30,675 nt of DNA from a virus (IMGVR_UViG_2721755724_000001), one strand, 5' to 3'; shown: positions 4,771-28,757, numbered from the stretch's first letter. The notes: generated from the letters alone by a model not told the origin. Program-made: numbers and translations.

Positions 4771-4827
4771 AAAACGGCGGCAGAGCAGTCACGGAGTAAA
4801 ACTGATACCGCCAAACGTCACCAGAAA
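4771..4827 (-). ncRNA. dicF: DicF small RNA (ftsZ-targeting) with intrinsic terminator hairpin
   Basis: Minus-strand sequence UUUCUGGUGACGUUUGGCGGUAUCAGUUUUACUCCGUGACUGCUCUGCCGCC followed by GUUUUU matches DicF as recalled; GGCGG...CCGCC stem plus U-run. Confidence 0.85.
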
Positions 4828-5637: not shown

Positions 5638-5849
5638 CGTCAGCCTCATCAGTCAGTGTTTCTGGCTAACCAGCAACGCGCGCCAGATTCGGTTTTAAAC
5701 GTTTTGCTTTTGGTATATGTCATCGCGGTGAACGTACCGTCCTGGTTGGGGAACACGCCACATACAGGAGGCATCTGGCGGCGAGCTTCTGTATGATCCC
5801 AAGGTTTATGACGAATATCGTAAGACGAAGCGGGCGGGGCGGTTGAACA
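5638..5849. promoter_or_regulatory. Divergent intergenic region, probable immunity/early promoter-operator region
   Basis: About 210 bp between divergently oriented genes; contains the palindrome AAACGTTT and the dicC remnant. No operator repeats confidently identified. Confidence 0.3.
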
Positions 5850-7644: not shown

Positions 7645-8550
7645 CTATATTTCCAGACATCTGTTATCACTTAACCCATTACAAGCCCGCTGCCGCAGAT
7701 ATTCCCGTGGCGAGCGATAACCCAGCGCACTATGCGGATGCCATTCGTTATAATGCTCGAACGCCTCTGCAAGGTTCTTTGCTGCCGTTAACCCGTCTGG
7801 TTTGGGCATGATACTGATGTAGTCACGCTTTATCGTTTTCACGAAGCTCTCTGCTATTCCGTTACTCTCCGGACTCCGCACCGCCGTGTTCTTCGGTTCA
7901 AGTCCCAACATCCGGGCGAACTGGCGTGTTTCATTAGCCCGGTAGCATGAACCATTATCCGTCAGCCACTCCACTGGAGACGACGGAAGATCGTTGCCGA
8001 AGCGGCGTTCCACCGCTCCCAGCATGACGTCCTGTACTGTTTCACTGTTGAAGCCGCCGGTAGTGACCGCCCAGTGCAGTGCCTCACGATCACAGCAGTC
8101 CAGCGCGAACGTGACACGCAGTCTCTCTCCGTTATCACAGCAGAACTCGAACCCGTCAGAGCACCATCGCTGATTGCTTTCTTTCACGGCCACTCTGCCT
8201 GTATGTGCCCGTTTCGATGGCGGTACAGCAGGTTTTCGCTCAAGCAACAGCGCATTCTGGCGCATGATCCGGTAAACACGTTTGGCATTGATCGCAGGCA
8301 TACCATCAAGTTCTGCCTGTCTGCGAAGCAGCGCCCATACCCGACGATAACCATACGTGGGCAGCTCTCCGATAACATGGTGTATACGGAGAAGCACATC
8401 CGTATCATCAGTGTGACGACTGCGGCGGCCATCCATCCAGTCATCGGTTCGTCTGAGAATGACGTGCAACTGCGCACGCGACACCCGGAGACAACGGCTG
8501 ACTAAGCTTACTCCCCATCCCCGGGCAATAAGGGCGCGTGCGCTATCCAC
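7645..8550 (-). CDS. insD: IS2 transposase OrfB (InsD), full length
   Basis: 301-aa ORF ending ...[37 protein letters not shown]; normally expressed as an InsCD frameshift fusion. Confidence 0.9.
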
Positions 8551-8873
8551 TTTTTTGCCCGTCCATATTCAACGGCTTCTTTGAGGAGTTCATTTTCCAT
8601 CGTTTTCTTGCCGAGCAGGCGCTGGAGTTCTTTAATCTGCTTCATGGCGGCAGCAAGTTCAGAGGCAGGAACAACCTGTTCTCCGGCGGCGACAGCAGTA
8701 AGACTTCCTTCCTGGTATTGCTTACGCCAGAGAAATAACTGGCTGGCTGCTACACCATGTTGCCGGGCAACGAGGGAGACCGTCATCCCCGGTTCAAAGC
8801 TCTGCTGAACAATTGCGATCTTTTCCTGTGTGGTACGCCGTCTGCGTTTCTCCGGCCCTAAGACATCAATCAT
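8508..8873 (-). CDS. insC: IS2 transposase OrfA (InsC)
   Basis: 121-aa product [26 protein letters not shown]... matches IS2 InsC. Confidence 0.9.
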
Positions 8874-9273: not shown

Positions 9274-9735
9274 ATGACCCCAATAAAAATATTTATGACT
9301 ATTGCTGATTTCAAACGGCCTAAATTGGAGCTCCCAAACGGGGCAAACAAACTACTACTGCACTCTTGCTGTGCTCCATGTTCCGGTGAAGTGATGGAGG
9401 CGCTTCAGGCCTCGGGAATCGACTATACCATCTTTTTCTACAACCCGAACATTCATCCTCAGAAAGAGTATTTAATTCGTAAGGATGAGAATATTCGCTT
9501 TGCTGAACAACACGGCGTGCCATTTATTGATGCTGATTACGACACAGACAACTGGTTTGAACGTGCCAAAGGAATGGAATGGGAACCCGAGAGGGGGATC
9601 CGTTGTACCATGTGTTTTGACATGCGTTTTGAGCGGACAGCGCTGTACGCTGCTGAAAATGGTTTCAGTGTGATCAGCAGTTCACTGGGCATTTCACGCT
9701 GGAAAAATATGCAGCAGGTTACCGTCACTGGATAA
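9274..9735 (+). CDS. QueH-family (DUF208, epoxyqueuosine reductase-like) protein, short form
   Basis: 153-aa ORF with the family-typical [12 protein letters not shown] block plus FFYNPNIHP and RCTMCF motifs; ends after ...[13 protein letters not shown], shorter than the canonical enzymes as I recall them. Confidence 0.55.
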
Positions 9736-10860: not shown

Positions 10861-10877
10861 TTTTGTGGAGTAAGTTG

Positions 10878-11255
10878 ATGCGTGATATTCAGATGGTTCT
10901 TGAGCGTTGGGGGGCATGGGCGGCTAATAATCATGAAGATGTGACCTGGTCGTCCATTGCCGCCGGTTTTAAGGGATTAATTCCTTCAAAAGTAAGATCT
11001 CGTCCGCAATGCTGTGACGATGACGCGATGATCATTTGTGAATGTATGGCTCGCCTGAAAAAAAACAACAGCGATTTACATGATTTATTGGTGGACTATT
11101 ATGTCGGCGGCATGACTTTTATGGCGCTTGCACGTAAGCATGGGCGATCTGATTGTTGGGTTGGCAGGATGCTCCAGAAAGCTGAGGGCGTAGTGGAGGG
11201 CATGCTGATGGTGTTGGATCTCCGATTGGAGATGGATGCTGATTGTTCGAAATAA
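10878..11255 (+). CDS. Late-gene antiterminator Q (QuuD-type)
   Basis: 126-aa product [33 protein letters not shown]... closely matches the DLP12 QuuD antiterminator as recalled; GGAG Shine-Dalgarno upstream. Confidence 0.85.
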
Positions 11256-11289
11256 TTAAAGGAAAAGTTGCTGTCTGATTTTCATTAGT

Positions 11290-11353
11290 CTAACATTTTA
11301 AATGTTGGAATCGCAACGTAGTTATTATCATATAACAGCTTGTTTCCTGATTT
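11290..11353 (+). promoter_or_regulatory. Candidate late promoter (PR'-like) and Q-utilisation region
   Basis: TTGGAA...TATCAT/TCATAT promoter-like hexamers immediately after Q and before an intrinsic terminator; assignment by position and motif only. Confidence 0.3.
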
Positions 11354-11383
11354 AGCCAGCCTCCCCAAAGGCTGGTTTTTTTC
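11354..11383 (+). terminator. Rho-independent terminator (tR'-like)
   Basis: AGCCAGCC-TCCCCAAA-GGCTGG hairpin followed by a 7-T run. Confidence 0.6.
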
Positions 11384-11410
11384 TAATAAGTATCATTTCG
11401 GGTGGGGATT

Positions 11411-11935
11411 TTATTGTTTAACCCATAATAGTTCATTGACATTGAATCCCAACTTTTGAGCGGTACGCACATAGTCTGCTTTTACATTATCTGGAATAGT
11501 TTGGGTCCTTGCCAGAATCCATAGGTATTCTCTGTTCGGACCACTGACAAGAGCATACTTATACTCATCATCCAGTTTGATTACATTATAGCCACCATAG
11601 AAGGGGCCAAAAAACGAAACTTTCAACGCTGCAGTTTTAGTATCTCCAGTAAAGTATGCTTTACCTTCGCTCTCGCTCCATTTGTTTTTCGTTGGATCGT
11701 ATCCACGGTTAAGTACGCGAATCCCTCCGTCGTTCCGTTTTTCATAAGTAGCGCTGACCTGTTCCAGACCACGTTCGAACCAGTTCTCGAGGCGAGCTAT
11801 TTCATACCATTTTCCGAGGTAGCGGTTGGCGTCAAAATTTGTAATCGGCTGCACACCTTTAGGTGGTGTCGGGGCCTTACATGCTATAAGAGTGAAAGAG
11901 AGTGCAATGCCAGTCAACACAGGCCATAACTTCAT
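11411..11935 (-). CDS. blc: Bacterial lipocalin (Blc-family outer-membrane lipoprotein)
   Basis: 174-aa ORF with lipoprotein signal peptide (LIAC lipobox) and strong similarity to E. coli Blc throughout (NFDANRYLGKWYEIARLENWFERGLE..., KVSFFGPFYGGYNVI, YLWILART). Confidence 0.8.
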   Translation of the reverse strand: MKLWPVLTGIALSFTLIACKAPTPPKGVQPITNFDANRYLGKWYEIARLENWFERGLEQVSATYEKRNDGGIRVLNRGYDPTKNKWSESEGKAYFTGDTKTAALKVSFFGPFYGGYNVIKLDDEYKYALVSGPNREYLWILARTQTIPDNVKADYVRTAQKLGFNVNELLWVKQ

Positions 11936-12127
11936 AATAAATCCTGTACTTTTGATAGTTGAGAGTAAGTATGAAAGATAGATGAGTACGACCGATCACT
12001 TAAAGAACTTTCCTACTATATTAGGAATAGTCAATAACAGAAAAATTGTCAGTGATGAAGCCAGAAAGGCAATTTAGTCCGTGCACTACAAAGTTTATGT
12101 GTTAATGAATTAGTCAAGGGGGAGGAA

Positions 12128-13087
12128 ATGATAAAAAAACCTGTGATTGGGATCAGCGGTTGTTTGGGCGGTTCTGCTGTTCGTTTTGATGGTGGTCACA
12201 AAAGAGATGACTTTTTAATGGACAAATTAGTGGAATGGGTAACATTCAGACCAGTATGTCCGGAAATGGCTATAGGGCTGCCAGTTCCGCGTCCTGCTCT
12301 ACGACTTGTGCGCTCGAAGCAAGGAAATATACGGATGTGTTTCAGCCACGACCAGAATGAGGATGTGACAGAGAGAATGACAGAGTTTAGTCGTTCTTAT
12401 ATGGACAAATTAAAGGATGTATCGGGTTTTGTGGTTTGTGCTAAATCTCCCAGCTGTGGCATGGAGCGCGTGCGTGTCTATGATGAAAATGGTAATCGAG
12501 GTCGTAAAGATGGAGTGGGACTATTTACGAGCACTTTGATGGAAAAGTTTTCCTGGCTACCGGTTGAAGAGGATGGGCGATTACATGATCCAGTGCTTCG
12601 TGAGAATTTTATTGAAAGAGTTTTTGCTTTGCATGAGCTCAATCACCTTTACAAGGAGAAATTATCAAGAAGAGAGTTATTAGCTTTTCATAGTCGTTAT
12701 AAGCTTCAGTTGTTGGCGCATAGCCAGGCAGGCTATAAAGATATGGGACCATTTGTGGCTGCAATACACGAGTGGGCGGACCTTGAATCATACTTTGAGG
12801 TGTATCGTGATAATCTGATGGCGATTCTCAGAAAACCAGCATCACGTAAAAATCACACGAATGTGCTGATGCATATACAGGGGTATTTTAGTAATTACTT
12901 AAGTACACGCCAGCGTAAAGAGTTGAGCGAGGTTATACTTAACTATCGCTTTGGCACATTGCCTCTTCTTGCGCCGTTGACTCTGCTGAAGCATTATCTG
13001 GGTGAGTATCCTAATGATTACTTGCTTACACAGAATTACTTCGATCCCTATCCGGAAGAACTGGCTCTAAGACTGATGGTGAATTAA
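12128..13087 (+). CDS. Two-domain DUF523 (TudS-like thionucleobase desulfidase family) / DUF1722 (YbgA-like) protein
   Basis: 319-aa ORF with GGGGGAGG Shine-Dalgarno; N-terminal Cys triad (GISGCLGG, PVCPE, AKSPSCG) typical of DUF523 Fe-S proteins; C-terminal half resembles YbgA. Confidence 0.65.
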   Translation: MIKKPVIGISGCLGGSAVRFDGGHKRDDFLMDKLVEWVTFRPVCPEMAIGLPVPRPALRLVRSKQGNIRMCFSHDQNEDVTERMTEFSRSYMDKLKDVSGFVVCAKSPSCGMERVRVYDENGNRGRKDGVGLFTSTLMEKFSWLPVEEDGRLHDPVLRENFIERVFALHELNHLYKEKLSRRELLAFHSRYKLQLLAHSQAGYKDMGPFVAAIHEWADLESYFEVYRDNLMAILRKPASRKNHTNVLMHIQGYFSNYLSTRQRKELSEVILNYRFGTLPLLAPLTLLKHYLGEYPNDYLLTQNYFDPYPEELALRLMVN

Positions 13088-13385
13088 CTGTATGCGATAT
13101 CATCTGAAAGTGATGAGTTCCTGTATGCAGGATATTTACAATCGTAAAAACTACGCTATGATGCTCATAGTGTCAGTTTTTATAAAAATCCTGTTCACGC
13201 TAAAGAAAACATTGAGATGCAATTTAATGTTGGTAAACATACCAGCCCCAAAAGATTTTATTCAATCTGTTTTTATATGAAGATATTTCAAGTGAATATA
13301 AAGAGCATATAATATTATTATTGCACGCAGGGTGATGCTGCCAACTTACTGATTTAGTGTATGATGGTGTTTTTGAGGTGCTCCA

Positions 13386-13661
13386 GTGGCTTCTGTTTCT
13401 ATCAGCTGTCCCTCCTGTTCAGCTACTGACGGGGTGGTGCGTAACGGCAAAAGCACTGCCGGACATCAGCGCTATCTCTGCTCTCACTGCCGTAAAACAT
13501 GGCAACTGCAGTTCACTTACACCGCTTCTCAACCCGGTACGCACCAGAAAATCATTGATATGGCCATGAATGGCGTTGGATGCCGGGCAACTGCCCGCAT
13601 TATGGGCGTTGGCCTCAACACGATTTTACGTCACTTAAAAAACTCAGGCCGCAGTCGGTAA
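13386..13661 (+). CDS. insA: IS1 InsA
   Basis: 91-aa product [37 protein letters not shown]... matches IS1 InsA. Confidence 0.95.
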
Positions 13662-14084
13662 CCTCGCGCATACAACCGGGCAGCGATGTGATTGTCTGCG
13701 CTGAAATGGACGAACAGTGGGGCTACGTAGGTGCTAAATCACGTCAGCGCTGGCTGTTTTACGCGTATGACAGGATACGGAGGACGGTTGTGGCGCACGT
13801 CTTCGGTGAACGCACTCTGGCCACACTGGAGCGTCTTCTGAGCCTGCTGTCGGCCCTTTGACGTGGTGATATGGATGACGGATGGCTGGCCGCTGTATGA
13901 ATCCCGCCTGAAGGGAAAGCTGCACGTAATCAGCAAGCGATATACGCAGCGAATTGAGCGGCATAACCTGAATCTGAGGCAGCACCTGGCACGGCTGGGA
14001 CGGAAGTCGCTGTCGTTCTCAAAATCGGTGGAGCTGCATGACAAAGTCATCGGGCATTATCTGAACATAAAACACTATCAATAA
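13580..14084 (+). pseudogene. insB: IS1 insB, frameshifted
   Basis: InsB-homologous sequence is split into two frames around 13855-13865 (...LSLLSAL* then [15 protein letters not shown]...), consistent with a 1-bp insertion relative to canonical IS1. Confidence 0.75.
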
Positions 14085-14271
14085 GTTGGAGTCATTACCT
14101 GCACGCAGCTATTATAATATAACAGATTAGTTTAATGATTTGTTTTTTGTGAGTTAAACACATGGTTTTATAGTTGTGATGCAATGAGATTTTCCTTATT
14201 GTTGAACTGGCGAATATTGATTTTCCACCTATACTTACCTGGTGTAACCCCAATGATATCAGGTGGATAAT

Positions 14272-14985
14272 ATGCCATACATATGTTCTATCATTTTGGT
14301 GTTGAACTCGTTTGGTGTCCGAATTGGTAAAGAAGATATTTTGTTTAAAAAAGGAAATGCTGTCCTCATTGAATACAATTTAAAAGATCTTTTTTCGTCA
14401 AATACAGATCATCTAATGATCGTAGATATTGAGGAGAAAACAGTTAATGATTTCTTTAAAAACTACACACTCTCACCTTTTTCTGTAAGAAGGTTTTATC
14501 CGTCATACTTGATAGTAGAATGTGAAGATTTTTCATTGTTAAGGAACTTGGTTGCATGCTTGAATTGTGATAGCAAAACCGTGGATGTAGTTAGAAATCA
14601 AATATCACTTGCATGTCTTGCTGTCTTATCTTCAGAGAAAATAGTGCAAAGTTTTTTGTTCGGAAGTCTTAATAGCTTAGGTTGTAAAGTTAAGGCTATT
14701 ATTCACTCGGATATCTCAGCGTCATGGAGACTTTGTGATATATCTTCAAGATTATATATGAGCGAGAGTTTGTTAAAAAGAAAATTAAAAGACGAAGGAT
14801 TATCGTTTAGTAAATTAATTCTTGAAGAACGAATGATGATGGCGCAAAGATTATTGATCTACAGTAACCATACTGTCGGCAAGGTGGCGGGAATATGCGG
14901 GTATGACAATGCATCATATTTTGTAAGTGTTTTTAGAGGATATTTTGGTGTGCCTCCGCACCAATATTTATCAAGATTTTCTTAG
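14272..14985 (+). CDS. AraC-family transcriptional regulator (AppY/Rns-like)
   Basis: About 237 aa from the ATG at 14272 (AGGTGG Shine-Dalgarno); C-terminal AraC helix-turn-helix (AGICGYDNASYFVSVFRGYFGVPPHQY); visibly AT-rich gene. Confidence 0.8.
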   Translation: MPYICSIILVLNSFGVRIGKEDILFKKGNAVLIEYNLKDLFSSNTDHLMIVDIEEKTVNDFFKNYTLSPFSVRRFYPSYLIVECEDFSLLRNLVACLNCDSKTVDVVRNQISLACLAVLSSEKIVQSFLFGSLNSLGCKVKAIIHSDISASWRLCDISSRLYMSESLLKRKLKDEGLSFSKLILEERMMMAQRLLIYSNHTVGKVAGICGYDNASYFVSVFRGYFGVPPHQYLSRFS

Positions 14986-15052
14986 AAGATATGATGTGAT
15001 GGCATTTTATAAAGTTATTTTTTGAAGTGTAAGATTATACGATATTTTTAGC

Positions 15053-15086
15053 TACGCCAGAATAATTGCTGGCGTTTTTTTTTTTG
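15053..15086 (+). terminator. Rho-independent terminator after the AraC-like gene
   Basis: CGCCAG-AATAATT-GCTGGCG hairpin followed by an 11-T run. Confidence 0.6.
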
Positions 15087-15175
15087 AATAGATGTTCGGG
15101 CCTTACGCTAATGTAACTTCTTTCCTTCTTCGAACCAAACCGTGTACACCATCCGTTATCTGCGGAGGTGAGGCT

Positions 15176-15391
15176 ATGAAATCCATGGATAAGTTAACAA
15201 CGGGCATCGCCTACAGCACCTCTGCAGGCAGTGCTGGCTACTGGTTTTTACAGTTGCTCGATAAAGTCACGCCCTCACAGTGGGCGGCAATAGGTGTATT
15301 GGGTAGTCTGGTATTTGGCATGCTGACGTATCTGACAAACCTTTATTTCAAGATTAAAGAAGACAGGCGTAAGGTTGCGAGAAGAGAGTAA
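15176..15391 (+). CDS. Holin, S21-type pinholin
   Basis: 71-aa product [60 protein letters not shown]... closely matches phage 21 S; dual-start MKSM motif; GGAGGTGAGG Shine-Dalgarno. Confidence 0.85.
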
Positions 15392-15395
15392 TCCA

Positions 15396-15947
15396 ATGAC
15401 TCAAGACTATGAACTGGTTGTGAAAGGAGTTCGCAATTTTGAGAATAAAGTGGCGGTAACTGTAGCCTTACGGGACAAAAAACACTTTGACGGTGAAATT
15501 TTTGACCTGGACATCTCGCTGGACCGTGTTGAAGGTGCCGCGCTGGAGTTTTATGAGGCAGCAGCCAGAAGGAGCATCAGACAGGTCTTCCTGGATGTTG
15601 CTGCCGGGTTATGTGAAGGGGATGAGCAGTCGCCGGAAAAGCGCCCCATAATTTTAGAGGCGCAGAATGTGTGGATAACCTACAAAGGAAAGCTACCGGG
15701 AAGAATTACTGGTTCTCTGAAGACGCCACCGACGGCATTGCGGTCAGAAAAAGATGATATTGAATCGCCCATTGAAAAACTGGAGGGCAGCGTCGCTGAT
15801 CTGAATAAAAAATTGTCGGTGCTGATTCCTTCTGAAGATGAAAAAAAACGCCGCGATGAGCAGTTTGCGGCGTTTTACGATTATTGCATTGAAGTTACTC
15901 GCAGGAATTTTGTGAAGATTTTTGAGGAGGGTAAATCTCTTCAGTAA
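15396..15947 (+). CDS. Hypothetical acidic protein (183 aa) between holin and endolysin
   Basis: ATG 5 nt after the holin stop; no transmembrane segment or lysozyme motifs evident; family not recognised. Confidence 0.5.
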   Translation: MTQDYELVVKGVRNFENKVAVTVALRDKKHFDGEIFDLDISLDRVEGAALEFYEAAARRSIRQVFLDVAAGLCEGDEQSPEKRPIILEAQNVWITYKGKLPGRITGSLKTPPTALRSEKDDIESPIEKLEGSVADLNKKLSVLIPSEDEKKRRDEQFAAFYDYCIEVTRRNFVKIFEEGKSLQ

Positions 15948-16155
15948 GCTTATTGGCGGACGCTGCAATTAATTCAGGAAGGTCCGCAAGGTCATCTGTC
16001 AGTGGATATGATGAAAAATCGGCGGCAGTTCTGTTAAGAAGCGCTTTAACTAATTCCTTTTCCTTCTCCGGCAACAAGTTGATTAGAGCTACGACTGCTT
16101 GCCTGAGTGCGATTAAATCAGCAAAAGTTTGTTTAGGTAGATTTGTGTAATCCAT
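15895..16155 (-). CDS. Hypothetical small acidic protein (86 aa), convergent with the preceding ORF
   Basis: ATG-initiated ORF with a weak Shine-Dalgarno; 3' end overlaps the 183-aa ORF by 53 bp; could be spurious. Confidence 0.3.
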   Translation of the reverse strand: MDYTNLPKQTFADLIALRQAVVALINLLPEKEKELVKALLNRTAADFSSYPLTDDLADLPELIAASANKLTEEIYPPQKSSQNSCE

Positions 16156-17296: not shown

Positions 17297-17659
17297 ATTA
17301 ATATTAAATCGGATTATTTTTAGCGCTGAATGTGAAATTTAAATAAAAAGGACTCTTCCATGAGTCAAAATCCTTGAAATCTTAAGGGTAAGATAAAAGG
17401 TCATTAGACAGAATGACACGTTTTATTAATAAATAAAGCTATTGTTTCATTCGTGTGTTTTTCTTTACAAAAGTAATCCTTGCTATGGTTGGTTAATCAT
17501 GCGTTAATGGTGTTCTGGTTTGTTACAAAATTATCTGAAGCAGTCATTGTTATAATTTTATTATTTGTACCTCTTGAGATTTCCTTGTTGGTTTTTCTCT
17601 CTGATATTTTTTTTCGGACCATTCTGCCCAAGGGCTAACTTCTTCAAAAGGTAATAATG

Positions 17660-17872
17660 ATGTCTAACACAATGACTGGTTTAGTGAAATGGTTTAACCC
17701 TGAAAAAGGTTTTGGTTTCATCACGCCGAAAGATGGTAGCAAAGATGTGTTTGTCCATTTCTCAGCTATTCAGAGCAACGATTTCAAAACGTTAACTGAG
17801 AATCAGGAAGTCGAATTTGGTATTGAGAACGGACCTAAAGGCCCCGCGGCTGTTCATGTTGTGGCACTTTGA
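17660..17872 (+). CDS. cspI: Cold-shock protein, CspA family (CspI-like)
   Basis: 70-aa product [70 protein letters not shown]; preceded by a long AT-rich leader of about 350 bp. Confidence 0.85.
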
Positions 17873-18071
17873 GGTAGAAAATATTACAAACCATATTCAC
17901 TTTAGATGCCCGTGTTGCCATGGTTCTCAGTATAGAACATCATCTTTTGATGTTTCTGACAGGAATCCTTTCGGGGCAAAATGTATCTTTTGTAAATCAA
18001 TGATGATTACATTTGATAATATTTCACAATACTTAAATGTTAGCCGTCTATCGTTAGATTTAAGAAAGTGA
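17856..18071 (+). CDS. Small Cys-rich protein in the ynfN position (possible zinc ribbon)
   Basis: Frame encoding ...[41 protein letters not shown]...; start uncertain; position after cspI matches Qin gene order. Confidence 0.4.
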
Positions 18072-18257: not shown

Positions 18258-19124
18258 CTAAGCGAGGTTCTTGTTTTCAAATTGTTCCGGACTGAGGCCG
18301 CCACACCAACTGTGCCGCCGCCACCGATTGTAATCACATTCGATATAATTAAACACCGTTGCCCGCATTATTTCCCGGCTGATAAAGTGTTCTCCATGGA
18401 TACATTCCACTTTCAGCGAATGAAAGAAGCTTTCCACGCAGGCATTATCGTAGCAGCAACCTTTTGCGCTCATACTTCCACGCAGATTATGCCGCTTCAG
18501 TTGCGCCTGATAATCTGCTGAACAGTACTGGCCTCCACGGTCCGTGTGAACGATAACGTTCCGGGGCCTCTTACGCCGCCACAGCGCCATCTGCAGGGCA
18601 TCGCAGGCCAGTTGCGCCGTCATGCGTGGCGACATTGACCAGCCAATAACGGCACGTGACCACAGGTCAATGACCACTGCCAGATACAGCCAGCCTTCAT
18701 CTGTACGTAAGTACGTGATGTCTCCTGCCCACTTCTGGTTCGGGCCACTGGCGTAAAAATCCTGCTCCAACAGATTTTCTGACACAGGCAGGCCGTGTGC
18801 GCGGTAGCTGACCGGGCTGAACTTCCGGGAGGCCTTTGCCCTCAGTCCCTGACGGCGCAGGCTTGCCGCCACGGTTTTTACGTTAAAGGGGTAACCCTGA
18901 GCACGCAGTTCATCCGTCAGGCGTGGGGCACCGTAACGCTGTTTTGACCGGGTAAAAGCCGCGAGGACAACGCTGTCGCAGTGTTGGCGGAACTGCTGAC
19001 GCGTGCTTATCCTTGTCCGCCGCTGACACCACGTATACCAGCCGCTGCGGGCCACCCGGAGCACGCGGCACATTGCTTTGATGCTGAACTCAGCCTGATG
19101 TTTTTCAATAAAGACATACTTCAT
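18258..19124 (-). CDS. insF: IS3 transposase OrfB (InsF)
   Basis: 288-aa ORF matching IS3 InsF (DDE catalytic region); normally expressed as an OrfAB frameshift fusion. Confidence 0.9.
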
Positions 19125-19420
19125 TTCAGGCGCTTCGCGAAGTATGTCGCGGCCTTTTGGAGGATAGCCAGCTCTTCATCCCGTTCTGCCAGCTGGCGTT
19201 TGAGACGTGCAATCTCGGTAGACATCTCCAGTTCACGTTCAGAAGACGTCTGCTGATTTTGCTGTTTACTGCGCCAGTTGTAGAGTTGTGATTCATACAG
19301 GCTGAGTTCACGGGCTGCGGCAGTAACACCGATGCGTTCAGCAAGCTTCAGGGCTTCACTGCGAAATTCAGGCGAATGCTGTTTACGGGGTTTTTTACTG
19401 GTTGATACTGTTTTTGTCAT
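19121..19420 (-). CDS. insE: IS3 transposase OrfA (InsE)
   Basis: 99-aa product [31 protein letters not shown]... matches IS3 InsE. Confidence 0.9.
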
Positions 19421-21031: not shown

Positions 21032-21588
21032 ATGGAGTTGCTTATGTCAAATGTGAGCGGGATCGGTGATGCTTATTACTGGAGTGTTTTTAAAATCGCC
21101 GAGGCCTTTGGGCTTCACCGGGACACAGTAAAAAAACGGCTCCTCGCGGCCAACACTCCTGTGGCTGCGACTGTCAGGGGGAACCCCGTTACCGGTTTGT
21201 CGCCTTAACCGATTACGACCGTTTTCCGGAGAATATCGACAGCGAGGGTGATGGTTTCTCCCAGGCCTCAAAACGTACCACCACATTTATGTCCGCCGGG
21301 ATGACTCTGGTGGAGAGCTCGCCGGGACGTGACATCTGCGACAGCAAATGGCGACGTAAGTCGCCTCATGAAGCGCCACCGACGACTGGTATTCTTTCCC
21401 TTTACAATCGTGGTGACCGCCGCCGCTGGTACTGGCCATGTCCGCACTGCGGTGAATATTTTCAGCCAGCCATGGATGCCATGACCGGCTACCGTAATGA
21501 ACCGGATCCCTTTAAAGCCAGTGATGCGCTGTATGCCGGTATGGAACGGGCAGACGCTGACGTTCGTGCAGGACCGACCATCAGATAA
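21032..21588 (+). pseudogene. Remnants of the terminase region: short small-subunit-like N-terminal ORF and an internal large-subunit (GpA-family-like) fragment
   Basis: 59-codon ORF (MELLMSNVSGIGDAYYWSVFKIAEAFGLHRDTVKKRL...) then a frame containing WYWPCPHCGEYFQP, similar to the CPHCGE motif of lambda gpA; no ATPase domain is present. Confidence 0.4.
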
Positions 21589-23968
21589 GGTGTGGACCTA
21601 TAACCGCAGTAATGTGGTGATGCCGGATGATGGCGCGCCGTTCCGCTACAGCTTCAGCGCCCTGAAGGACCGCCATAATGCCGTTGAGGTGAACTGGATT
21701 GACCCGAACAACGGCTGGGAGACGGCGACAGAGCTTGTTGAAGATACGCAGGCCATTGCCCGTTACGGTCGTAATGTCACGAAGATGGATGCCTTTGGCT
21801 GTACCAGCCGGGGGCAGGCACACCGCGCCGGGCTGTGGCTGATTAAAACGGAACTGCTGGAGACGCAGACCGTGGATTTCAGCGTGGGTGCTGAAGGGCT
21901 TCGCCATGTACCGGGCGATGTCATTGAAATCTGCGATGATGACTATGCCGGTATCAGCACCGGCGGGCGCGTGCTGGCGGTAAACAGCCAGACCCGGACG
22001 CTGACGCTCGACCGTGAAATCACGCTGCCATCTTCCGGCACCACGCTGATAAGCCTGGTTGACGGGCAGGGGAGTCCGGTCAGCGTGGAGGTTCAGTCCG
22101 TCACCGACGGCGTGAAGGTAAAAGTGAGCCGTGTTCCTGACGGTGTTGCTGAATACAGCGTATGGGGGCTGAAGCTGCCGACGCTGCGCCAGCGACTGTT
22201 CCGCTGCGTGAGTATCCGTGAGAACGACGACGGCACGTATGCCATCACCGCCGTGCAGCATGTGCCGGAAAAAGAGGCCATCGTGGATAACGGGGCGCAC
22301 TTTGACGGCGACCAGAGCGGCACGGTGAATGGTGTCACGCCGCCAGCGGTGCAGCACCTGACTGCCGAAGTCACCGCAGACAGCGGGGAGTATCAGGTAC
22401 TGGCCCGCTGGGACACGCCGAAGGTGGTGAAGGGGGTGAGCTTTATGCTTCGCCTGACCGTGGCAGCGGACGACGGCAGTGAGCGGCTGGTCAGCACGGC
22501 CCGGACGACAGAAACCACATACCGCTTCACGCAACTGGCGCTGGGACGGTACACGCTGACAGTCCGGGCGGTAAATGCGTGGGGACAGCAGGGCGATCCG
22601 GCGTCGGTATCGTTCCGGATTGCCGCACCGGTAGCACCGTCGCGGATTGAGCTGACGCCGGGCTATTTTCAGATAACTGCCACGCCGCATCTTGCGGTTT
22701 ATGATCCGACGGTACAGTTTGAGTTCTGGTTCTCGGAAACGCGGATTACCGATATCAGGCAGGTTGAAACCACAGCCCGCTACCTTGGTGCGGGGCTGTA
22801 CTGGATAGCCGCCAGTATCAATATCAAACCGGGCCATGATTATTACTTTTATATCCGCAGTGTGAACACCGTTGGCAAATCGGCATTCGTGGAGGCTGTT
22901 GGTCAGCCGAGTGATGACGCATCCGGCTATCTGGATTTTTTCAAAGGCGAGATAGGGAAAACCCATCTGGCTCAGGAGCTGTGGACGCAGATTGATAACG
23001 GTCAGCTTGCGCCTGACCTGGCTGAAATCAGGACATCCATTACGGATGTCAGCAATGAAATCACACAGACCGTCAATAAGAAACTGGAAGACCAGAGTGC
23101 AGCGATTCAGCAGATACAGAAGGTTCAGGTTGATACAAATAATAACCTGAACAGCATGTGGGCCGTGAAACTGCAGCAGATGCAGGACGGACGCCTTTAT
23201 ATTGCGGGTATCGGTGCCGGTATTGAGAATACGCCAGCAGGAATGCAGAGTCAGGTGCTGCTGGCGGCAGACAGGATTGCGATGATTAATCCTGCGAATG
23301 GCAACACAAAGCCGATGTTTGTTGGTCAGGGTGATCAGATATTCATGAACGACGTGTTCCTGAAACGCCTGACGGCTCCCACCATTACCAGCGGCGGTAA
23401 TCCTCCTGCATTTTCCCTTACACCGGACGGGCGACTGACGGCGAAAAATGCGGATATCAGTGGCAGTGTGAATGCGAACGCCGGGACGCTCAACAATGTC
23501 ACGATAAATGAAAACTGTCGGGTTCTGGGAAAACTGTCTGCGAACCAGATTGAAGGCGATCTCGTTAAAACAGTGGGCAAAGCTTTCCCCCGGGACTCCC
23601 GTGCACCGGAGCGGTGGCCATCAGGGACCATTACCGTCAGGGTTTATGACGATCAGCCGTTTGACCGGCAGATTGTTATTCCCACGGTGGCGTTTCGTGA
23701 CGCTAAACATGAGCGGGAGAATAACGATATTTATTCGTCATGCCGCCTGATAGTGAAGAAAAACGGTGCTGAAATTTATAACCGTACCGCGCTGGATAAT
23801 ACGCTGGTTTATACAGGTGTTATTGATATGCCTGCCGGTCACGGTCACATGACGCTGGAGTTTTCGGTATCAGCGTGGCTGGTAAATGACTGGTATCCCA
23901 CAGCCAGTATCAGTGATTTGCTGGTTGTGGTGATGAAGAAATCCACAGCAGGTATCAGTATCAGCTGA
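21551..23968 (+). pseudogene. Host specificity protein J (central tail fibre), C-terminal roughly two-thirds only
   Basis: Near-identity over hundreds of residues to lambda J from ...[29 protein letters not shown]... to the C-terminus; the apparent N-terminus of the 823-aa ORF is out-of-frame terminase-region sequence. Left boundary approximate (about 30 bp). Confidence 0.8.
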
Positions 23969-27612: not shown

Positions 27613-27978
27613 ATGATTGATGTCTTAGGGCCGGAGAAACGCAGACGGCGTACCACACAGGAAAAGATCGCAATTGTTCAGCAGAGCTTTGAACCGGGGA
27701 TGACGGTCTCCCTCGTTGCCCGGCAACATGGTGTAGCAGCCAGCCAGTTATTTCTCTGGCGTAAGCAATACCAGGAAGGAAGTCTTACTGCTGTCGCCGC
27801 CGGAGAACAGGTTGTTCCTGCCTCTGAACTTGCTGCCGCCATGAAGCAGATTAAAGAACTCCAGCGCCTGCTCGGCAAGAAAACGATGGAAAATGAACTC
27901 CTCAAAGAAGCCGTTGAATATGGACGGGCAAAAAAGTGGATAGCGCACGCGCCCTTATTGCCCGGGGATGGGGAGTAA
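27613..27978 (+). CDS. insC: IS2 transposase OrfA (InsC), copy 2
   Basis: Identical 121-aa product to copy 1. Confidence 0.9.
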
Positions 27979-28757
27979 GCTTAGTCAGCCGTTGTCTCCG
28001 GGTGTCGCGTGCGCAGTTGCACGTCATTCTCAGACGAACCGATGACTGGATGGATGGCCGCCGCAGTCGTCACACTGATGATACGGATGTGCTTCTCCGT
28101 ATACACCATGTTATCGGAGAGCTGCCCACGTATGGTTATCGTCGGGTATGGGCGCTGCTTCGCAGACAGGCAGAACTTGATGGTATGCCTGCGATCAATG
28201 CCAAACGTGTTTACCGGATCATGCGCCAGAATGCGCTGTTGCTTGAGCGAAAACCTGCTGTACCGCCATCGAAACGGGCACATACAGGCAGAGTGGCCGT
28301 GAAAGAAAGCAATCAGCGATGGTGCTCTGACGGGTTCGAGTTCTGCTGTGATAACGGAGAGAGACTGCGTGTCACGTTCGCGCTGGACTGCTGTGATCGT
28401 GAGGCACTGCACTGGGCGGTCACTACCGGCGGCTTCAACAGTGAAACAGTACAGGACGTCATGCTGGGAGCGGTGGAACGCCGCTTCGGCAACGATCTTC
28501 CGTCGTCTCCAGTGGAGTGGCTGACGGATAATGGTTCATGCTACCGGGCTAATGAAACACGCCAGTTCGCCCGGATGTTGGGACTTGAACCGAAGAACAC
28601 GGCGGTGCGGAGTCCGGAGAGTAACGGAATAGCAGAGAGCTTCGTGAAAACGATAAAGCGTGACTACATCAGTATCATGCCCAAACCAGACGGGTTAACG
28701 GCAGCAAAGAACCTTGCAGAGGCGTTCGAGCATTATAACGAATGGCAATCCGCATAG
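27936..28757 (+). pseudogene. insD: IS2 insD, copy 2, frameshifted near the 3' end
   Basis: Copy 2 reads GAATGGCAATCCGCA where copy 1 reads GAATGGCATCCGCA (one extra A), giving ...EHYNEWQSA* (273 aa) in place of the 301-aa product. Confidence 0.8.

Follow-up and report, generated by a model that had tools for sequence, protein, structure and literature searches.

Lambdoid phages and prophages carry additional genes in the interval between the antiterminator gene Q and the holin gene S. In this slot, stx is present in the Shiga toxin (Stx) phages, the lc porin gene in phage PA-2, and cspB/cspF in the Qin prophage of Escherichia coli K-12. This paper deals with the Q-S interval of the viral stretch IMGVR_UViG_2721755724_000001, a DNA of 30,675 nucleotides that was analysed at its full length (the window) and was identified as a Qin-like lambdoid prophage of E. 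coli H2, located between rspB and ydfJ. From Q to S, the interval contains a gene for a Blc-type lipocalin on the minus strand, a gene on the plus strand coding for a protein with the domains DUF523 and DUF1722, an insertion sequence (IS1), and an AT-rich gene for an AraC-family regulator, also on the plus strand. The interval probably represents a cassette for lysogenic conversion (a moron) that is conserved among lambdoid coliphages; here it resides in a decayed prophage and was split by IS1. Such a cassette would provide the host with a Blc-type lipocalin, with RudS, an eraser of 4-thiouridine (s4U) that is absent from K-12, and with a regulator of the PatE/Psr family.

For each of the three genes, a related system has been described. 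Of 19 lambda-like phages isolated from E. coli of the infant gut, more than 50% carry blc, which was listed there among the morons (Mathieu et al. 2020, PMC6969025). RudS_vir, the product of gene 66 of phage 1H12 (H3V29_gp66), is among six RudS enzymes which lowered the s4U content of tRNA when over-expressed in E. coli (Jamontas et al. 2024, PMC11417400). PatE, PsrA and PsrB were identified as prophage-encoded AraC-like activators of the gadE/hdeA acid resistance in enterohaemorrhagic E. coli (EHEC) O157:H7 (review PMC10877973). A preliminary description of the interval, made from the sequence alone, held that this combination of genes is not a described module. As sequence, the cassette is not new, its parts having been published and the same trio occurring in other phages; in the literature searched, no paper treating prophage, lipocalin and YbgA together was found.

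The interval is delimited by two typical lambdoid genes. Q (10878-11255, plus strand, start according to PGAP; alternative start at 10863) encodes a QuuD-like antiterminator (PF06530, 171 bits), to which Q21 is a distant relative (E=5e-9 against PDB 6P18). The holin gene, essQ by annotation, is the first gene of the lysis cassette and codes for a class II holin of the S21 (P21) type (15176-15391, plus strand; alternative start at 15092; PF04971, 115.7 bits). All 3835 bp of the interval are found with 100% identity and in a single piece in the chromosome of E. coli H2 (NZ_CP010163.1). This match, together with the repetition of the gene order in other prophages and phages, implies that the junctions of the cargo with Q and S are genuine. 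The elements proposed in the preliminary description, a cargo in the position of stx with a lipocalin, a DUF523/DUF1722 protein, an AraC-type protein and an IS1, were all recovered there, their identities being upheld by Pfam and NCBIfam models and by the IS1 repeats. The suggested comparison of base composition also gave a clear result: blc and rudS have GC contents of 43-44%, araC has 33.5%, and the spacers within the cassette have 32-37%, whereas ydfU, Q, S, rrrQ and rzpQ range from 46 to 54%, so that the cargo is distinct from the phage backbone.

The homology to the K-12 prophage DLP12 stops at position 11237, inside the 3' end of Q, and restarts at 15156, 20 nucleotides before the start of the holin gene, and these breakpoints define the limits of the exchangeable block. 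Other lambdoid Q-S slots use the same insertion site downstream of Q, with backbone homology likewise restarting about 20 nucleotides before the holin gene. Both orientations of cargo occur in these slots; nmpC of DLP12, for example, is also in antisense, like blc in the window. The interval differs from other occupied slots in the genes it carries, in the presence of a terminator on either side, and in its almost invariable link to one Q/PR' allele. The slot of prophage Sp4 of O157 Sakai contains psrA plus tRNA genes, that of the window blc, rudS and araC; in contrast to the slots of the Stx phages and Sp4, a tRNA scan identified no tRNA genes in the interval. Scanning the whole window with Rfam at the gathering thresholds gave no hit within the Q-S interval, and none of the three cassette proteins fits a known defence system according to PADLOC.

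The order Q, blc (minus strand), rudS, araC and holin gene was also identified in the DLP12-like prophage of E. coli E22, in a strain of sequence type 69 (ST69), in which it lies in an apparently complete lambda-like prophage, and in QDFD216. At least three prophage backbones other than that of the window thus carry it. In BL21, the cassette is equally located between Q and S, where it is cut off by an IS3. The same order is present in the free, viable phages IdasGreatGrand and 1H12, and in a phage collection rudS is carried by 12 lambdoid coliphage genomes. The three genes had been termed non-phage genes. This designation does not hold, since each cassette protein belongs over its full length to a PHROG family (phrog_2809, phrog_3275 and phrog_1450) and the trio is stable in viable lambdoid phages. 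Identical proteins are shared between strains, with Blc WP_000780584.1 being common to H2, BL21 and QDFD216, and RudS WP_000592549.1 to H2 and QDFD216. Among 5426 complete E. coli genomes, the blc and rudS segment was found in 1153 (at least 80% of the segment was covered in 1047), the araC segment in 925, and a 163-bp segment comprising the end of Q, PR' and tR' in 1113. The numbers 1113 and 1153 show that the cassette is linked almost one-to-one to a single allele of Q and the late promoter. Between alleles, the ratio of nonsynonymous to synonymous substitution rates (dN/dS) was 0.10-0.19 for blc, 0.14-0.19 for rudS and about 0.2 for araC, and these values (0.10-0.21 across alleles) indicate that the three genes are kept by selection. 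The cassette was further detected on two short contigs binned in a metagenome-assembled genome of 'Candidatus Nanosynbacter' (Saccharibacteria), with amino-acid identities of 84-98% (Q 98%, blc 97%, rudS 92-97%, araC 84%, holin 92%). This occurrence is almost certainly a binning contamination.

The cassette is bracketed by two intrinsic terminators. Upstream, a tR'-like terminator with a stem of 9 bp followed by seven T residues is located at 11354-11384 (plus strand), 100-130 nucleotides downstream of Q, and is invariant in all alleles. Downstream, a strong terminator with a GC-rich stem of 7 bp and eleven T residues was identified at 15054-15085 (plus strand), directly upstream of the holin gene; its stem is kept in five of five alleles. 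Two conserved terminators on the flanks correspond to the promoter-gene-terminator layout of morons. The late promoter PR' is expected at 11227-11296 (plus strand), a region nearly invariant in six alleles. Two weak candidates are present, TGGAGA-18-AATAAT at 11227-11256, found by a consensus scan, and TTGCTG-17-TAACAT at 11268-11296, found by eye. The presumed promoters of the cassette would be located in the divergent intergenic region between blc and rudS (11936-12127, 34% GC), in which conservation is confined to the phage alleles and does not extend to Citrobacter sedlakii, and in which a search by eye revealed no LexA box. A candidate promoter for araC was found by the consensus scan at 14147-14174, downstream of IS1.

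From this arrangement, late transcription is predicted to halt before the cassette in the absence of Q, and transcription starting inside the cassette is predicted to halt before the lysis genes. A lysogen would thus express the cassette genes from internal promoters, with the lysis genes shielded from this transcription. In intact phages, S could be reached from PR' only if Q-modified polymerase traversed the 3.7 kb of cassette, producing sense transcripts of rudS and araC and an antisense transcript of blc. A fold with two hairpins was predicted for the leader between PR' and tR' (11297-11385, plus strand; -24.1 kcal/mol, z=-3.85), the sequence of which is nearly invariant across alleles. 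For short leader RNAs of this kind, the lambda 6S RNA and StxS are analogues, and by analogy the leader is a candidate for a constitutive short RNA.

The blc-like gene (11411-11935, minus strand) encodes a lipocalin lipoprotein of 174 amino acids, which is predicted to be located in the outer membrane. The protein was assigned by PF08212 (146 bits) and passed the NCBIfam model for the Blc subfamily (NF007786, 312.6 bits at a cutoff of 267), and it covers the solved chain of E. coli Blc, 3MBT, from end to end (E=8e-67). The signal peptide reads MKLWPVLTGIALSFTLIAC/KAP, with the lipobox L-I-A-C at residues 16-19 including the invariant cysteine. The Lipocalin_2 fold and the lipobox cysteine are common to the phage protein and to the chromosomal Blc of E. 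coli (b4149; PDB 1QWD, 2ACO and 3MBT), to which the phage lipocalin represents a second, phage-borne paralogue. Its identity of 68-80% to the lipocalins encoded beside rudS in Citrobacter and Enterobacter is higher than would be anticipated if it had been copied from the host gene. By analogy to Blc, the window protein would be an outer-membrane protein binding lysophospholipids or another hydrophobic ligand. A sister phage allele, WP_000780581.1 of the E22 cassette, was classed as 'outer membrane' in a proteomics study of a carbapenem-resistant strain, in which it was quantified and increased 2-3 fold on meropenem (PMC13459554). Since the protein was seen in a growing, non-lysing culture, direct evidence of expression in a lysogen exists for one gene of the cassette.

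The second gene, rudS (12128-13087, plus strand), codes for a protein of 319 amino acids, which by homology is a [4Fe-4S] tRNA 4-thiouridine desulfidase. It is a fusion of a TudS domain (PF04463, residues 7-149, 137 bits) and a DUF1722 domain (PF08349, residues 192-309, 136 bits); the TudS/DUF523 family is now called '2-thiouracil desulfurase' in Pfam. The closest characterised protein is RudS_vir, which has the same length of 319 amino acids and the same domain fusion, and the gene of which is likewise flanked by blc and an AraC gene between Q and S. Both proteins are 92% identical and differ by 26 substitutions, so that the window contains a different allele, which resides in a defective Qin-like prophage, whereas RudS_vir is encoded by a viable phage. 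The cysteines of the cluster, Cys12 (GISGCLGG), Cys44 (RPVCPEM) and Cys110 (SPSCGME), are aligned with those of TudS 6Z92 and are also present in RudS_vir. In RudS_vir and RudS_ST, Cys12, Cys44 and Cys110 are the ligands of the [4Fe-4S] cluster (PMC11417400, Table 1). Judged by this similarity, the window protein would strip sulfur from s4U in tRNA as RudS_vir does. RudS/TudS homologues were stated to be lacking in E. coli, where DUF1722 occurs only as the stand-alone protein YbgA (PMC11417400), which implies that strains with the phage rudS have no other RudS. Chromosomal rudS genes are usually part of light-responsive operons with MerR/LitR regulators and a photolyase, according to the same paper (PMC11417400); the phage copy is without that regulator. 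As a separate observation, a pseudogene of QueH (epoxyqueuosine reductase) is present at 9274-9735 (plus strand), which covers profile positions 1-126 of 175 of PF02677 and is fused before ydfU. A copy with 93.5% identity exists in the viable phage HannyBb, and besides rudS it is the second tRNA-modification gene of this lineage.

The third gene (14272-14985, plus strand) encodes an AraC-like regulator of the PatE/Psr family with 237 amino acids, or 240 amino acids when the GTG start at 14263 is used. PF12833 was identified on residues 161-237 (59.9 bits), and PF00165 was also found, corresponding to a C-terminal AraC double helix-turn-helix. Over its full 237 amino acids, the regulator is 47% identical to ECs_0287 of Sakai, an AraC-like protein of prophage Sp1 which we take to be PatE (z0321), and it shares 47% identity with PsrA (z1789/ECs_1087) over the C-terminal 160 amino acids. 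The best NCBIfam model was YdeO (NF007407), and the score of 112.3 bits failed the equivalog cutoff of 348 by far. An assignment as YdeO was therefore rejected, the architecture being only YdeO-like. Within the subfamily of the window regulator, the alleles are 76-98% identical among themselves, and sequence comparison suggests that it forms a third branch of the PatE/Psr regulators, distinct from PatE and PsrA. Like the window protein, PatE, PsrA and PsrB belong to the same size class, are encoded by AT-rich genes and are carried on prophages. PsrA occupies the same slot, namely the Q-to-lysis (tRNA/lysis) region of Sp4, and P0015, a member of the Psr group with 39% identity to the window regulator, is encoded in a further prophage between Q and the holin genes, which makes an AraC-like regulator in the Q-S slot a known arrangement. 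In contrast, the prophage of PatE carries the gene at its tail-fibre end. The partners of the window araC are blc and rudS, those of patE and the psr genes are effectors, pch genes or tRNAs. Two reports that appeared relevant were set aside. The 'PatE' of strain Nissle (CIW80_12240) was unplaceable, the examined region being core chromosome (bcs-dpp-xyl) with no prophage, and the experiment is not linkable to the subfamily; the study on orf6/orf10 of phiv142-3 concerns other genes and has no bearing on the cassette.

Genes similar to rudS were identified in a number of other enterobacteria. A scan with one genome per species gave 62 loci outside E. coli with 66-76% identity, in Citrobacter, Kluyvera, Klebsiella, Enterobacter, Leclercia, Pectobacterium and others. 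In 40 of these loci, a divergent lipocalin gene is present upstream, the product of which is 68-80% identical to the phage lipocalin. In Citrobacter sedlakii, the blc homologue is located directly beside rudS, as in the phage, and in Enterobacter a gene for a MerR/MlrA-type regulator and a transthyretin-like gene lie between both. These neighbourhoods suggest that the blc-rudS pair was taken from a Citrobacter/Enterobacter-like chromosome and that the regulator was left behind. For araC, a separate origin is suggested by its GC content of 33.5% in comparison to 43-44%, by a synonymous divergence between alleles much above that of blc and rudS, and by the poor conservation of the rudS-araC spacer.

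This spacer contains the IS1, a secondary insertion of 769 bp (13331-14099, plus strand). Its ends are the terminal inverted repeats GGTGATGCTGCCAACTTA... and GGTAATGACTCCAACTTA..., and it is flanked by the 9-bp target duplication TGCACGCAG at 13322-13330 and 14100-14108; the transposase is marked as frameshifted by PGAP. QDFD216 contains the same allele without IS1 and with a single copy of TGCACGCAG, representing the empty site. The duplication and the empty site show that IS1 is a simple, late insertion which does not belong to the original cargo. Close to it, a stretch of 26 nucleotides of the PR'-tR' leader (11316-11341) is repeated with 22 of 26 identical positions at 14103-14128, about 145 nucleotides upstream of araC, the start of the repeat being overlapped by the IS1 target duplication. 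It was the single notable repeat in a search for motifs linking the region upstream of araC to the blc/rudS promoter region. This copy is found in the allele of the window and QDFD216 only; since four further alleles are without it, a role as a shared operator of araC and blc/rudS was rejected. A recombination scar or a chance similarity may account for it.

The remainder of the prophage is badly decayed, as shown by its insertion sequences and by the fragmentary terminase and tail genes (about 21044-23968); both head and tail genes are present as fragments. In comparison to the Qin-like prophage of BL21, 816 bp are deleted at a junction at about 5763-5765, with loss of a gene for a helix-turn-helix repressor and the 5' end of cro, so that the immunity and early-promoter region is gone. 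Upstream of Q, an IS2 (7645-8873) interrupts a DUF977 gene. An IS3 is located at 18258-19420 beside ynfN, and an element of the IS3 family at 27613-28757 inside a tail-fibre gene. The loss of the immunity and early-promoter region and the presence of IS2 and IS1 in the path make Q-driven expression unlikely in the window, for which only autonomous expression, as from a moron, would be plausible.

Several points weigh against the interpretation as a moron cassette. The promoter consensus scan gave 15 sites compared to 11.2 +/- 3.6 in shuffled sequence, which is no enrichment. Evidence for expression in a lysogen covers the Blc protein alone, not rudS or araC. RudS_vir was assayed by over-expression only, and its activity was somewhat below that of the other RudS proteins, at good solubility (PMC11417400). 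An identity of 47% does not guarantee the specificity of PatE/Psr, the YdeO cutoff was widely missed, and activation of gadE/hdeA is known for PatE, PsrA and PsrB only, not for the AraC subfamily of the window. Finally, a lytic role would be just as compatible with the tight linkage to one Q/PR' allele and with the fact that rudS and araC point in the direction of the late operon. Rather than a moron, the cassette would then be an auxiliary operon of the lytic cycle, with rudS and araC being expressed mainly from the Q-antiterminated late transcript, which must cross both genes in intact phages. RudS would strip photosensitive s4U, so that translation continues in UV-damaged induced cells, and the regulator would reprogram the host late. 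The near one-to-one association with a single Q/PR'/tR' allele (1113 versus 1153 genomes) is consistent with such a role, as is the lessening of the UVA-induced growth delay on RudS over-expression, described in PMC11417400. Nevertheless, we regard it as rather unlikely, because blc is antisense to the late transcript and the tR'-like terminator before the cassette and the strong conserved one between araC and S form the layout of a moron. Moreover, phage Blc was seen in a culture that was not lysing (PMC13459554), the related PatE and Psr proteins act in the lysogen (PMC10877973), and the genes are intact and under purifying selection also in prophages incapable of lytic growth, such as that of the window. 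The preliminary description had assumed Q-dependent late expression on induction; this holds in part, as predicted read-through in intact phages, but blc is in antisense, the cassette is bracketed by terminators and the prophage of the window is defective.

In H2 itself, the cassette might be nothing but inert baggage of a dead prophage, silenced, uncoupled from Q and without a phenotype. The deleted immunity region, the IS2 upstream of Q, the IS1 within the cassette and the fragmentary structural genes point in this direction, and AT-rich DNA, here with 33.5% GC in araC and 32-37% in the spacers, is typical of xenogeneic silencing, for example by H-NS. This is considered very unlikely, since all three reading frames are intact, the Blc and RudS accessions are identical to those of other strains, dN/dS is low across alleles, a candidate araC promoter is present downstream of IS1, and the Blc of a sister allele is expressed (PMC13459554). 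As a further alternative, an ordinary chromosomal island unrelated to phages could have been moved beside Q and S by an IS1 rearrangement, considering the IS1 in the interval and the occurrence of blc-rudS as a chromosomal neighbourhood in Citrobacter, Enterobacter and their relatives. This view has practically no probability left and is already refuted by the cassettes of IdasGreatGrand and 1H12 together with the empty site: the IS1 with its clean 9-bp duplication is a simple insertion, other prophages and plaque-forming phages have the identical order without IS1 in their Q-S slot, and all E. coli contexts examined adjoin the Q/PR' segment, in agreement with the genome counts. The blc-rudS pair is indeed chromosomal in other Enterobacteriaceae, but the E. 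coli copy is tied to the Q/PR' allele, so that the preliminary description is not refuted on the ground of a common, characterised chromosomal locus unrelated to prophages. Beyond the moron interpretation, it is conceivable, though doubtful, that the trio forms one coordinated stress-protection unit delivered by the phage, which combines an s4U eraser, an envelope lipocalin and a regulator with the leader as an StxS-like constitutive small RNA. The regulator would then control the cassette in place of the lost MerR/MlrA-type regulator and would also rewire the acid resistance of the host.

As a lysogenic-conversion cassette, the interval is common and largely ordinary, partly already described, and is otherwise a routine instance of a moron occupying the Q-S hot spot. 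At the species level, the published claim that E. coli lacks RudS/TudS homologues (PMC11417400) fails, since about 19-21% of the complete E. coli genomes contain a rudS that is carried on a prophage and is apparently functional. The s4U level of tRNA and the responses to near-UV may thus vary between strains through a prophage cassette. If the trio in fact acts as a coordinated stress unit, about every fifth strain would be altered in its near-UV growth delay and translation. The blc-rudS pair clearly illustrates how phages capture a gene neighbourhood of a sister genus and drop the native regulator. The AraC branch of the window is not confined to EHEC but is widespread, occurring in commensal as well as extra-intestinal E. 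coli.

Outside the Q-S interval, some additional features were identified in the window. The gap between the holin and lysozyme genes (15375-16155) contains an extended open reading frame similar to DUF1327/YdfR, annotated as partial YdfR by PGAP, and an open reading frame of 86 amino acids at 15895-16155 (minus strand) matches phrog_2572 over its full length. The Rfam scan detected the DicF antisense RNA at 4775-4826 (minus strand, 72.5 bits) and a cspA-type thermoregulator in the 5' untranslated region before cspI at 17502-17899 (plus strand, 109 bits).

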